Shown here: piece after piece, positions 1-30,200 of the stretch | Position numbering within the stretch: the first letter of the stretch is position 1 | Layout: each line of letters opens with the position of its first letter | Assembly (NCBI GenBank): GCA_031413835.1 | Contig: JANOFW010000493.1 | Location: forward strand, 1 to 32,087 | DNA: 32,087 nucleotides | Source of the DNA: Planctomycetia bacterium | GTDB taxonomy: Bacteria; Planctomycetota; PLA2; JAEUHO01 | Reading direction: 5' to 3' | Program-made: the position numbers and the translations under genes | The notes under the pieces: generated by a model | What the model was told of the DNA's origin: nothing | Databases searched by the model: none | What the model saw: only the letters and a program-made list of their open reading frames with translations

Positions 1-831
1 GGCTCGATCCGCCGCTTCCGTGCGGTTCACGCGAGCGCGCCGATCGTGTTGGCCCTGACCGGCACCGACATCTACGGCGGCCTCGAGCGCTCGGCGCACG
101 CGCGCCGCTCGCTCGAGCTGGCCACGCGCCTCGTGGTGCTCCAGCCGCTGGCGATCCAGGAACTGGCGTCGCGCTTCCGCCCGCTGGCGAGCGTGATCCA
201 CCAGAGCGTGCCCAAGCCCACGAAGAAGCCGCCGCCGGAGACCGGGTGGTTCCAGGTCTGCGTGCTGGGGCACCTGCGGCGCGTGAAGGACCCCTTCCGC
301 GCCGCCAAGGCCGCGCGCCGGCTGCCGGCCTCGAGCACCCTGCGCGTGCTGCACGCCGGCCGCGCCATGAGCGAGTCGATGGCCGTGCGCGCGCGCGACG
401 AGATGCGCGTCAACCCCCGCTACCGCTGGTTGGGCGACCTGGCCCACGACGACGCCCAGCACCTGCTGGCCCGCAGCCGCCTGATGGTGCTCTCGAGCCG
501 CGCCGAAGGCGGCGCCAACGTGATCTCCGAGGCGCTCGCCCACGGCGTGCCCGTGCTGGCCTCGCGCATCCCCGGCACGGTGGGCCTGCTGGGCGAGGAC
601 TACCCCGGCTACTTCGAGGCCGGCAACACGCGCGCGCTGGCCGCGCTGCTCGACAAGGCCGAGACCGAGCCTGCCTTCTTCGAAGCGCTCGAGGCCGCCT
701 GCGCCCGACGCGCCTATCTCGTGAGCCCCATCCGCGAACGCGCCGCCTGGCGCAAGCTGATCGCGGGATTGGCTCCCAAGCGACGGGCGGCTCGCTGGGC
801 TGGGGGCGCTCAGGCCCCCGCGTCGTCCTGA
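1..831 (+). CDS. Glycosyltransferase, GT-B fold / family 1, C-terminal part (5' end lies upstream of the window)
   Basis: Frame 1 is open from base 1, so the listed start at 46 is only an internal GTG. SSRAEGGANVISEALAHGVPVLASRIPGTVGLLGEDYPGYF matches the classic GT1 sugar-nucleotide-binding C-terminal region. From memory it resembles the TIGR04348/SenB-type subfamily, which I cannot verify. The last 44 nt, including the stop codon, lie inside the 117-bp repeat. Confidence 0.8.
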   Translation, partial: GSIRRFRAVHASAPIVLALTGTDIYGGLERSAHARRSLELATRLVVLQPLAIQELASRFRPLASVIHQSVPKPTKKPPPETGWFQVCVLGHLRRVKDPFRAAKAARRLPASSTLRVLHAGRAMSESMAVRARDEMRVNPRYRWLGDLAHDDAQHLLARSRLMVLSSRAEGGANVISEALAHGVPVLASRIPGTVGLLGEDYPGYFEAGNTRALAALLDKAETEPAFFEALEAACARRAYLVSPIRERAAWRKLIAGLAPKRRAARWAGGAQAPASS

Positions 832-904
832 TGTAGGAAGACTCGTGTAGCCAGGCTGCATGTCGTCCTCCGCGGCGGCCCTCCGCTCCCCATCCAGCGA
901 GCCG
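788..904. repeat. 117-bp structured repeat element, copy A
   Basis: Ungapped alignment to 27345-27461 gives 111/117 identities in the same orientation. The termini form an 11-bp inverted repeat (cggcTcgctgg / ccagcgAgccg). Further nested pairing follows: GGGG/CCCC, GCG/CGC, GGCC/GGCC and CCGCG/CGCGG. Confidence 0.9.
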
Positions 905-909
905 GTGGC

Positions 910-1185
910 TCAGAACGATGTGAAGACCGCCCACGCGCAGCCGGCGACGAGGGCGAGGAGCACCGGCAGCGCGGCTGGCGAGCGAGCGAGGGACAGGAGC
1001 CAACGGGGGGCCGGGGGGGCGGGGTCGCCCGGGTGTAGTTGCGCGAGGCGGCTGCGCAGCACCCACACGCGCAGCGCGACCCACGTGAGGGCGAGACCGG
1101 CGAGAATCCACGGCAACACGCCCGGCGGCAGGCCAGGCATGTTCTCGAGATCGACCGCCAGGAGCGGAGCGAGAAAGGTGTGCAT
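910..1185 (-). CDS. Small hypothetical membrane protein (91 aa, two predicted TM helices)
   Basis: ATG at 1185 is preceded by AAGGAG with an 8-nt spacer (ggaAAGGAGcggacgccATG). There are two hydrophobic stretches (LPWILAGLALTWVALRVWVL and LPVLLALVAGCAWAVF). GC3-rich codon usage. It lies 50 nt downstream of the SOD gene on the same strand. Confidence 0.55.
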   Translation of the reverse strand: MHTFLAPLLAVDLENMPGLPPGVLPWILAGLALTWVALRVWVLRSRLAQLHPGDPAPPAPRWLLSLARSPAALPVLLALVAGCAWAVFTSF

Positions 1186-26363: not shown

Positions 26364-27338
26364 GTGAGCGCCGCCCACGACATCGAGAGAGTGGTCCTCA
26401 TCGGCGCGGGCCCCGCAGGCTGGACCGCGGCCAGCTTCGCCGCGCGCGCCAGCCTCGATCCTCTGGTCTACGAGGGTGCGCCCAGCCAGCAGATGATCGC
26501 GGGCGGGCAGCTGATGTTCACCACCGAGGTGGAGAACTACCCGGGCTTCCCGGACGGGGTGGACGGCAAGGAGATGATGGCCAAGTTCCGCGAGCAGGCC
26601 GTGCGCTTCAAGACGCGCGTCGTCACCGACGACATCGTGGCCTGCGACCTGTCCAAGCGTCCCTTTACGCTCACGAGCGGCGAAGGCAAGACGATCAAGA
26701 CCCAGGCGGTCATCATCGCCACGGGCGCCAAGGCCAAGTGGCTCTGGCTCGACAACGAGCAGCGCTTGGCGCAGTCGGGCGGCGGCGTCTCGGCCTGCGC
26801 CGTGTGCGACGGTGCGCTGCCCGCCTTCCGCAACCAGCACGTGGTGGTGGTGGGGGGCGGCGACACGGCGATGGAGGAGGCGCACTTCCTCACGAAGTTC
26901 GCCAGCAAGGTCACGGTGGTGCACCGCCGCAGCGAGTTCCGCGCCTCGCAGATCATGCAGGATCGCCTGCTGGCCAGCCCCAAGGTGGAGGTGGCCTGGA
27001 ACAGCGCGGTCACGGACGTCCTCGGCGCCGAGTTCATCGAGGCCGTCGAGCTGACCGACACGGTCACGGGCACGAAGCGCCGCGTGCCCTGCAAGGGCCT
27101 CTTCATGGCGATCGGGCACGAGCCCAACACGGCCTTCTTGAAGGGCCAGATCACCACCGACGCCTCGGGCTACATCACGCTCCCCGACCGCGGCTCGACC
27201 AAGACCAACATCACCGGCGTCTTCGCCGTCGGCGACGTGGCCGACAAGGTCTACCGCCAGGCCGTCACCGCGGCCGGCAGCGGCTGCATGGGCGCGCTCG
27301 ACTGCGAGCGCTGGCTCGCCGCCGAGGGCATCCACTAG
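26364..27338 (+). CDS. trxB: Thioredoxin-disulfide reductase
   Basis: VVLIGAGPAGWTAA (FAD GxGxxG), redox-active CAVCDG, VVVVGGGDTAMEEAHFL (NADPH site), and GVFAVGDVADKVYRQAVTAAGSGCMGAL. I chose the GTG start at 26364 (GGAG 9 nt upstream). The longer ORF from 25932 overlaps the TPR gene. Confidence 0.9.
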   Translation: MSAAHDIERVVLIGAGPAGWTAASFAARASLDPLVYEGAPSQQMIAGGQLMFTTEVENYPGFPDGVDGKEMMAKFREQAVRFKTRVVTDDIVACDLSKRPFTLTSGEGKTIKTQAVIIATGAKAKWLWLDNEQRLAQSGGGVSACAVCDGALPAFRNQHVVVVGGGDTAMEEAHFLTKFASKVTVVHRRSEFRASQIMQDRLLASPKVEVAWNSAVTDVLGAEFIEAVELTDTVTGTKRRVPCKGLFMAIGHEPNTAFLKGQITTDASGYITLPDRGSTKTNITGVFAVGDVADKVYRQAVTAAGSGCMGALDCERWLAAEGIH

Positions 27339-27344
27339 GCGCGT

Positions 27345-27461
27345 CGGCGCGCTGGGCTGGGGGCGCTCGGGCCACCGCGTCGTCCTGATGTAGGAAGACT
27401 CGTGTAGCCAGGCTGCATGGCGTCCTCCGCGGCGGCCCTCCGCACCCCATCCAGCGTGCCG
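27345..27461. repeat. 117-bp structured repeat element, copy B
   Basis: 111/117 identical to 788-904 in the same orientation. It starts 6 nt after the trxB stop. The terminal 11-bp inverted repeat is kept, with a G-T (G-U) pair where copy A has T-A. Confidence 0.9.
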
Positions 27462-27513
27462 AGGCAGGGCCGCCCGACGTACCCTGAGAGCAACAGATCG
27501 CCTGGAGCGCCTC

Positions 27514-27532
27514 GGCGGCCCTTCGGGCCGCC
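27514..27532 (+). terminator. Hairpin ggcggccc-ttc-gggccgcc downstream of trxB and repeat copy B
   Basis: Perfect 8-bp GC stem followed by cttcct. Candidate intrinsic terminator for the trxB transcript. Confidence 0.45.
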
Positions 27533-27545
27533 CTTCCTCGATGCA

Positions 27546-27602
27546 ACGGCGCGTCCGCGCCGTCCATCCTCCAAGTAACGGCGCGTCCGCGCCGTTACTT
27601 GG
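27546..27602. terminator. Two tandem hairpins sharing the core aacggcgcgtccgcgccgt; the second is a perfect 32-bp palindrome covering the stop codon of the convergent dehydrogenase gene
   Basis: The first hairpin, acggcgcg-tc-cgcgccgt, is at 27546-27563. The second, ccaagtaacggcgcg-tc-cgcgccgttacttgg, is at 27571-27602. The TAA stop of the minus-strand gene (27595-27597) lies in the stem. This looks like a bidirectional terminator. Confidence 0.55.
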
Positions 27603-30117: not shown

Positions 30118-30200
30118 CCTCCACCCGCCCCCGCCGCCCCCGCCGCCCCCCAGCCCCCAGCCCCCCGCCACCCGCCCCCCCGGCCCCCCTCCTACTCCAC
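30118..30200 (+). repeat. C-rich low-complexity tract between nuoB and nuoC (62 of 83 nt are C on the coding strand)
   Basis: Counted directly. There are nine C-runs of 3-7 nt (ccc, ccccc, ccccc, cccccc, ccccc, cccccc, ccc, ccccccc, cccccc), so the complementary strand has matching G-runs. The tract ends in cctcctactccac immediately before the nuoC GTG, with no SD. Confidence 0.85.

Follow-up and report, generated by a model that had tools for sequence, protein, structure and literature searches.

The two copies of a structured element in our window (the whole 32,087-nt stretch analyzed here) probably belong to a non-autonomous, REPIN/MITE-like family of interspersed hairpin repeats in an uncultured high-GC Planctomycetes lineage. 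The family is previously undescribed and of a familiar kind, and it represents no new kind of system. The initial annotation of this DNA had named a REP/MITE-like element and a structured RNA as candidates, and the first half of that interpretation was well supported by copy number, covariation and folding energy. To our knowledge, hardly any such elements have been described for Planctomycetes, which gain a well-defined, structure-constrained repeat family.

Two copies of a hairpin element in the window

The window consisted of ordinary genes in chromosomal DNA of approximately 72% G+C. Copy A (27345..27461, plus strand) and copy B (788..904, plus strand) aligned without gaps and in the same orientation, with 111 of 117 positions identical (blastn within the 32-kb window, E = 1.5e-49). 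The identity ended at, or within a few bases of, these limits and the flanks were unrelated, so that both alignment and blastn confirmed what had first been reported for this pair. When scored with the covariance model R1 (see below), the 117-nt core hairpin of copy A received 102.7 bits on the plus strand and 30.3 bits on the minus strand, and that of copy B received 101 bits. Neither blastn nor R1 detected a third copy or a fragment in the 32-kb window.

The six mismatches between the two copies were located at element positions 5, 25, 30, 76, 100 and 113. Positions 5 and 113 are opposed in the terminal stem, where the 27345 copy has a G5·T113 wobble and the 788 copy a T5-A113 pair. Pairing is therefore kept, as the initial annotation had noted, although it had assigned the two versions to the wrong copies. 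Its 117-bp unit also held as a core, but the unit is often larger and includes left and right modules.

Distribution of the family

The family was searched with a gapped pattern derived from the arms common to three sequences, CTGGGCTGGGGGCGC-N55-85-CCCCATCCAG. Nine matches were found in the genome-contig collection, all in a single MAG (uncultured Planctomycetales bacterium SRP173033_co1_169), and 29 matches were found on 26 JGI contigs from four metagenomes. A covariance model (R1) built from 39 distinct copies was then run on 279 kb of retrieved DNA and recovered, at E <= 1e-8, 49 copies, including diverged copies and copies with nested insertions, with up to four copies in 6.4 kb (L035). 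Beyond short modules, the flanks of the copies were unrelated. The core ranged from 103 to 134 nt and its commonest form was 103 nt long; the 117-nt form, whose apex is 14 nt longer, recurred in L021, L032, L037, L038 and L040. The apex was the least conserved part of the element, and the exact apex 20-mer TGTAGGAAGACTCGTGTAGC had zero matches in the genome-contig and metagenome-contig collections. No match was obtained for the gapped arm pattern in viral contigs or for the family sequence in PLSDB plasmids and INPHARED phages, and a literature search with the arm sequences returned only chance matches in unrelated papers. Rfam also gave no hit on the element at gathering thresholds or at E <= 10 in the window, or at E <= 1 in four loci, in line with the initial annotation, in which no known RNA family had been recognized.

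Several copies were damaged or invaded. Truncated or decayed copies, consisting of the left module plus the 5' arm only or of the 3' arm only, adjoined intact ones in tandem or clustered arrangements (L036:1100-1195 on the minus strand, L014:3541-3600 and L033:6330-6370). Two copies (L041:4398-4531 and L020:4887-5019) carried a nested small-hairpin insertion of approximately 30 nt on the 5' side of helix P3, GGCGCCACG-CTTG-CGTGGCGCC and GGCACCTCG-CTTG-CGAGGTGCC, respectively, and in L043:5414-5508 a small hairpin sequence of this nested type stood in place of the outer arms. These three loci suggest that another family of palindromic repeats, shorter than the present one, uses its members as insertion targets.

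Predicted structure and covariation

For both window copies, a single long imperfect hairpin was predicted on each strand, in agreement with the fold originally drawn on paper. RNA folding gave -76.8 (z -5.35), -71.8 (z -5.45) and -71.6 kcal/mol (z -6.33), DNA parameters gave z-scores of -3.6 to -5.4, and none of 200 shuffled sequences folded as well as the window copies, i.e. the folding energy was far better than that of shuffled controls. The same hairpin was predicted for every subtype (z -4.7 to -8). From its base, it comprises helix P1 (12 bp), a bulged C13, helix P2 (UGGGG GCG / CGC·CCCCA, which includes a G12·T wobble and leaves an A/T unpaired), a small internal loop, the variable helices P3/P4, two pyrimidine-rich loops and a variable apical hairpin. 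The arms are two inverted ends of approximately 19 nt, CGCTGGGCTGGGGGCGCTC … CTCCGC(A/T)CCCCATCCAGCG, which pair in all copies and in which the bulged C and the G·T wobble are conserved. However, alignment columns 8-22 and 102-111 hold bases that the search pattern required and are uninformative on conservation, so the invariance of the arms is partly an ascertainment artefact.

The sequence varied freely in the inner helices, at the apex and in the 3-5 closing bp, and all of these kept their complementarity. In the 39-sequence alignment, 93.4% of the cells were paired, and almost half of the pairs (17 of 35; 104 cells) had changed on both sides. The covariation score (0.228) was reached by none of 500 shuffles (0.080 ± 0.007), and slid controls did not exceed 0.065. 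Covariation of the element was thus strong. Moreover, copies with near-identical interiors carried different complementary closing triplets (GCG/CGC, CCG/CGG, GGG/CCC, ACG/CGT and ACC/GGT), which points to active maintenance of pairing, either via selection or via correction on a folded strand. Target-derived palindromes were considered as a source of these variable closing pairs and were rejected, as the triplet is internal to the constant C1-G2 and C6-G7 and the stems stop before the flanks. Stops in all three plus frames were likewise discarded as a design feature: they occurred in the 117-nt form only, and subtypes whose apex is, for example, CCTCGCGTACGC or CCTCATGGCCGC had none.

The pyrimidine-rich loops contained the motifs GTCGTCCTGA and CGTCCTCCGC (822-832 and 862-871 in copy B; 27379-27389 and 27419-27428 in copy A), which were conserved in most subtypes. 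Their plus-strand sequence is similar to the anti-Shine-Dalgarno CCUCC, and the minus strand reads GGAGGA.

Composite units and association with stop codons

Many copies were preceded by a left module of approximately 33 nt, with a consensus of a stop codon, about 4 nt, GCG..C.GAAGTTC.. and ..ACGTG, and right modules of 45-95 nt belonged to several types. The resulting composite units measured approximately 230-260 nt, with at least four different outer modules on the same core; in the DNA examined, the outer modules were never seen without the core. In the alpha units (L018, L036, L038 and L039), which read CTAG-TGGCGTGCGTCAGAAGTTCCCTTG … CAAGAGACTTCTGGCGGGCGCCAC-TAG, a 28-bp terminal inverted repeat (TAGTGGCGTGCGTCAGAAGTTC) was bounded by TA within CTAG, and the whole unit folded at -153 kcal/mol (z -5.9). 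The beta (MAG) and delta units had other outer inverted repeats of 12-17 bp, those of beta being TTCGAGGCGGGA/TCCCGCCTCGAA. TA was present on both sides in L009, L010, L036, L038 and L039, a pattern that would fit duplication of TA inside CTAG. The window copies had the hairpin stem as their sole inverted repeat, and no outer terminal inverted repeats were recognizable in them.

More than half of the copies (27 of 50) had the stop of a co-oriented ORF within 60 nt of the core start, compared with three convergent stops within 60 nt of the right end, a bias that is inflated by the off-centre position of the core in the unit. In 16 of those 27, the stop was located at -28 to -41 and was exactly the start of the left module (7 TAG, 3 TAA and 6 TGA). 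Between co-directional genes, approximately 10-11 copies were in sense and four in antisense orientation, and copies in L011 and L018 were located in 5' regions.

Other observations were made next to individual copies. A small hairpin, GCGAGCCCC-(TTCG/TCCG/TGCG)-GGGGCTCGC, was present in nearly identical form approximately 20-45 nt 3' of the core in at least six unrelated loci (among them L024, L026, L028, L037, where it occurred twice, and L007:43-63); it may represent either another repeat module or a terminator-type hairpin that these loci have in common. In L021:2676-3926, two copies lay between rpoC and fusA, one of them beginning right after the rpoC TAG, and the first was followed by a run of GAGCCA/GAGCGA hexamers (approximately L021:2815-2860).

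Insertion sites of the two window copies

Orthologous loci of both window sites were reached via protein homologues of the flanking genes. Copy A began 6 nt past the TAG of the thioredoxin reductase gene (trxB), in a region between convergent genes, so the initially annotated position directly 3' of a plus-strand gene was correct for this copy. The trxB stop and the 6-nt spacer GCGCGT (27336..27344, plus strand; TAG at 27336-27338) are a very short counterpart of the left module found with other copies. On the other side, AGGCAGGGCCGCCCGACGTA (27462..27482, plus strand) loosely resembles, by eye, the sequence GTGGCAGGGCGCGACCCCCGG that is found 3' of the core in MAG copies; it is a possible remnant of a right module, and this assignment is uncertain. 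Further 3' were a GGCGGCCC-TTCG-GGCCGCC hairpin (27514..27532), a small hairpin present twice and then the glucose/sorbosone dehydrogenase (GSDH) gene, which is convergent. Alignment with L002 showed that the first of these hairpins is also present in this element-less relative, so it is native to the intergenic region and not part of an insertion; it is likely of the terminator type.

At the trxB site, L001 (a Logan contig; 99-99.7% nucleotide identity) contained the first 28 nt of copy A at the same position (L001:1284-1311), where the contig ended. The element was absent at this site from L002 (92%), L004 (84%) and L006 (87%). A different element of approximately 250 bp, built from GTAG-tagged REPs, was found there in L005 (83%), suggesting a hotspot of palindromic elements between trxB and the GSDH gene. 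The L005 element (L005:1885-2140) was bounded by inverted GTAG-tagged REPs, GTAGGGGCG(A/C)CCCTTGTGG(G/T)CGCCC, with a third REP nearby, and the TrxB of this locus shared 92% amino acid identity with the window TrxB. A classical REP system, and probably a RAYT as well, thus appears to exist in the clade. Right after the trxB stop, L002 had another small palindrome, GGAATCCCGGGGCCCCTGCCCCAGGATTCC (L002:4108-4140), that the window did not have. The small 19-nt hairpin in the window, AACGGCGCGTCCGCGCCGT, occurred twice in tandem (27545-27563 and 27576-27597), the second copy overlapping the stop codon of the convergent GSDH gene, and once in L002. These small hairpins (27545-27596) gave the only weak Rfam match, a sub-threshold one to Acido-1 on the minus strand (25.6 bits; gathering score, 50).

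The situation of copy B differed from that initially described, since this copy does not lie behind its upstream gene but overlaps it: the ORF of a TIGR04348-family glycosyltransferase (ORF 46/1-831) read 44 nt into the element and ended at a TGA of the element (829..831, plus strand). The stop of a convergent 91-aa ORF (910..912, minus strand) followed 5 nt past the end of the copy, so copy B occupied the entire gap between the two genes, and L007 was arranged likewise. The left module of copy B (757..787, plus strand; CTGA plus 27 nt, ending AGCGACGGG as in L026) was translated in frame with the glycosyltransferase (…LIAGLAPKRR…). Because the TGA of this module is out of frame here, translation continues to the TGA of the core, and approximately 24 glycosyltransferase codons are thus element-derived, with approximately 80 nt of ancestral sequence replaced.

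Comparison with relatives agreed with these limits. In L008 (91.5% identity), the element was absent from the glycosyltransferase site and the protein had an ancestral-looking C-terminus (…GRRPSRKRTAAR). Similarity to this empty-site relative stopped at approximately 752-759 (the blastn match ended at 752), where a CTGA matched the left-module start as in L026, and from the left-module start onward the C-terminus of the window protein differed from its empty-site homologues. On the other hand, L007 and L028 (83-84% identity) contained an orthologous 103-nt copy at the same site, with arms 100% identical to those of copy B and a compensatory change in the inner helix (CCGCG/CGCGG in copy B, CCCCGG/CCGGGG in these relatives). 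The pattern of occupancy indicates that both window sites are polymorphic between relatives. At both, the element replaced, and did not merely interrupt, sequence found in relatives, and no clean target-site duplication was readable at either copy in these comparisons. The second Logan (k-mer based) contig, L007, started inside the last 22 nt of a copy (L007:1-22), so the repeat, as also in L001, fragments short-read assemblies of these organisms.

Neighboring genes and coding capacity

The genes next to the copies were housekeeping genes, including rpoC, fusA, dnaX, rpoN, priA, speA and genes for ribosomal proteins and ATP synthase. An all-against-all blastp of 315 ORFs and a Pfam search of 95 ORFs identified no recurrent neighbor protein family. 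The window and the DNA adjoining the copies revealed no transposase (RAYT, IS630 or other), and there was no parent IS with matching ends in the loci examined. A PF01797-type RAYT was also not noticed among the best 25 of 63 small-ORF families in 326 kb of genome fragments. The family had no conserved ORF, and a concatenated six-frame translation of the element had no real match among 5.8 billion proteins, so the element is not a widespread translated segment. Elsewhere in the window, a short cluster of C-rich direct repeats (CCGCCCCC-type) was observed near the nuo genes (30118-30188).

Alternative explanations

It is possible but unlikely that the element is primarily a cis-acting 3'-UTR RNA module, such as a terminator without a U-tract, a site of processing or protein binding, or a barrier to 3'-exonucleases, whose spacing after the stop codon is kept by selection and whose dispersal would be no more than its means of arrival. 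The extreme stability of the hairpins and their conserved structure would fit such a role, as would the abutment of the left end on co-oriented stops (27 of 50 copies, against three convergent stops at the right end), the constant spacing of approximately 33 nt given by the left module, the conservation of the CU-rich internal loops (UCGUCCU / CGUCCUCC) across subtypes and the position of copies after highly expressed genes, e.g. rpoC. However, part of the left/right asymmetry comes from the off-centre core, the bias between co-directional genes is modest, and some copies are found in 5' regions. Selection on a plus-strand RNA would also be expected to prefer G·U over A·C, whereas the variable pairs contained 16 G·T and 22 A·C cells; the two were equally frequent, so nothing marks the plus strand as RNA. 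An intrinsic (Rho-independent) terminator is a GC-rich hairpin with a U-tract immediately behind it; no T-run (U-tract) followed any copy, and a terminator scanner called no such terminator. The permissive Rfam searches (E <= 1-10) matched no family, and at both window sites there are close relatives that lack the element.

The copies are very improbably attC-like, structure-specific recombination sites, i.e. solitary or CALIN-type sites scattered over the chromosome, whose folded single strands a tyrosine recombinase would recognize by their extrahelical bases. An imperfect hairpin with a conserved basal stem, a bulged C, an unpaired A/T and a variable apex is reminiscent of attC, as is the position just 3' of co-oriented ORFs, and L021 and L028 each had two co-oriented copies approximately 1.15 kb apart in their contigs. 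But attC sites, which are found in cassette arrays near intI, are defined by their R''/R' core sites (RYYYAAC…GTTRRRY), and these were absent from the ends of the family hairpin, extrahelical bases being present. The genes between or beside the copies (rpoC, fusA, trxB and rpoN) are housekeeping genes and not cassettes, and there was no integrase in any locus examined.

A simple segmental duplication or chance similarity, which the presence of only two copies in the 32-kb window might have suggested, can practically be dismissed, since other genomes and metagenomes contain approximately 47 more copies, whose flanks are unrelated (9 matches in the MAG, 29 in metagenomes, 49 copies with R1), the blastn E-value of the window pair was 1.5e-49 and the flanks diverged right at the element ends. 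The same applies to a small protein encoded on the reverse strand: the annotated GGAGGAC-N4-ATG and its open frame (MQPGYTSLPTSGRRGG…) are indeed present in both window copies, but neither the common 103-nt form nor L021:2676-2792, a 117-nt copy, has the ATG, and translations of the reverse strand in other subtypes show no relationship. In addition, one reverse frame of copy B is interrupted by a stop, the six-frame query had no protein match and substitutions track base pairing rather than codons. This mini-ORF was rejected as not conserved across subtypes.

Possible mobilization and implications

With a non-autonomous REPIN/MITE-like repeat family as the preferred reading, the conserved irregular basal stem would be the recognition site of an enzyme supplied in trans, and the rest of the stem would need only to pair. 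A candidate enzyme is a RAYT/IS200-like single-strand transposase that acts on the folded hairpin. For the TA-bounded composites, an IS630/Tc1-like DDE transposase is a candidate, and the outer terminal inverted repeats and TA features of some units point instead to such a DDE (IS630-like) partner. As no transposase was found either in the window or next to the copies, we only infer mobilization. Stop codons and convergent intergenic regions would be the main places where copies survive, since insertions there leave the genes intact, and the element may itself supply a stop codon and a short C-terminal tail, as copy B does. Given the known targeting of TA/CTAG by IS630/Tc1 elements, TA-bounded ends that start with G could regenerate TAG upon insertion into the TA of a stop codon, and in a genome of 72% G+C stop codons may be among the few TA sites where insertion is harmless. 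When co-transcribed, the hairpin predicted at -70 kcal/mol probably has a putative secondary role as a 3'-end barrier.

A more far-reaching model seems distinctly unlikely to us. It regards the family as a mobile 'gene-end cassette', in which the conserved irregular basal stem, with its bulged C, G·T wobble and unpaired A/T, would be read by a dedicated enzyme as a folded single strand. A stop codon, a fixed spacer of approximately 33 nt and a very stable hairpin would be delivered to the 3' ends of housekeeping genes, the hypervariable and always complementary closing triplet being generated or corrected by mobilization and not by slow compensatory evolution. If true, the family would represent a new system of transposition or recombination that is structure-specific and has a function in mRNA 3'-end formation built into it.

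There are also practical consequences. Assemblers break contigs at the repeat in these genomes. Since gene termini are rewritten by the repeat, as in the glycosyltransferase, which owes it the stop and the last ~24 residues, annotation pipelines will call element-derived tails; our alignment and covariance model can be used to mask or annotate such sites. With its invariant bulged stem, freely covarying helices and several outer modules, the family also provides a natural data set for identifying the enzyme behind the movement of hairpin repeats in a high-GC genome and the reason for their location at stop codons.

Comparison with known repeat families

REPs are short imperfect palindromes of 20-40 bp, usually with a GTAG-type tag, and REPINs are REP doublets that form hairpins and are mobilized by RAYT transposases. 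In a REP-RAYT system, the same genome encodes a single-copy RAYT (a Y1/HUH transposase, PF01797), which the repeats typically flank. REPINs consist of two invariant inverted ~16-mers and a variable spacer, fold into a hairpin and commonly show compensatory changes (Bertels & Rainey 2011, PMC3116915). This description closely fits the present family, which resembles REPINs in several respects: its extragenic units of ~100 nt have two invariant inverted ends and a less conserved spacer; the whole unit folds as a long hairpin in which compensatory changes are common; many extragenic copies, tens to hundreds per genome in repeats of this kind (at least nine in the fragmented MAG, two in the 32-kb window and four in 6.4 kb), are spread over unrelated loci among housekeeping genes; and there are occasional clusters and decayed half-copies (L014, L033 and L036). 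In contrast with REPINs, however, its arms are not 20-40 bp palindromes and have no convincing self-complementarity beyond GCGC…GCGC, the foot of the hairpin has no constant GTAG/CGTC tag (a GTAG is confined to some of the apices and right modules), and many copies are extended by left and right modules and adjoin stop codons.

MITEs form a second group for comparison. As derivatives of TIR transposons, they are small and non-coding, have terminal inverted repeats and target-site duplications and share their ends with an autonomous IS. IS630/Tc1 elements target TA/CTAG, and the family shares with TA/CTAG MITEs (IS630/Tc1-mariner derivatives) and terminator-like MITEs (Neisseria Correia/NEMIS, ERIC and RUP) non-coding units of approximately 230-260 nt and presence/absence polymorphism, observed at both window sites; its alpha type has 28-bp terminal inverted repeats flanked by TA in CTAG (L036, L038 and L039). 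Intergenic insertion, co-transcription with neighbors and long hairpins are further features in common with these MITEs. On the other hand, the most conserved part of the family is the internal hairpin and not the termini, and the window copies have no recognizable outer inverted repeats or target-site duplications.

Third, mosaic arrangements and REPs nested in palindromes have already been described (Di Nocera et al. 2013, PMC3733652), as have 28 GTAG/CGTC-tagged REP families, with REP families reported in the PVC superphylum (PMC3733652). Similar to BIMEs and these GTAG/CGTC families, our family combines a palindromic unit with variable flanking motifs in a mosaic, contains palindromes inside larger palindromes and prefers gene 3' ends and convergent intergenic regions. 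Its sequence is unrelated to the 28 described families, and its core, at 103-117 nt, exceeds the 20-40 nt of a REP three- to fivefold and has defined bulges and internal loops. Finally, Rickettsia palindromic elements (RPE) insert inside genes and are translated throughout. Like RPE and the mycobacterial MIRUs, members of our family can lie in frame at gene ends and provide host proteins with residues or stops, the glycosyltransferase at copy B being an example; unlike RPE, they affect gene termini only, and most copies are extragenic.
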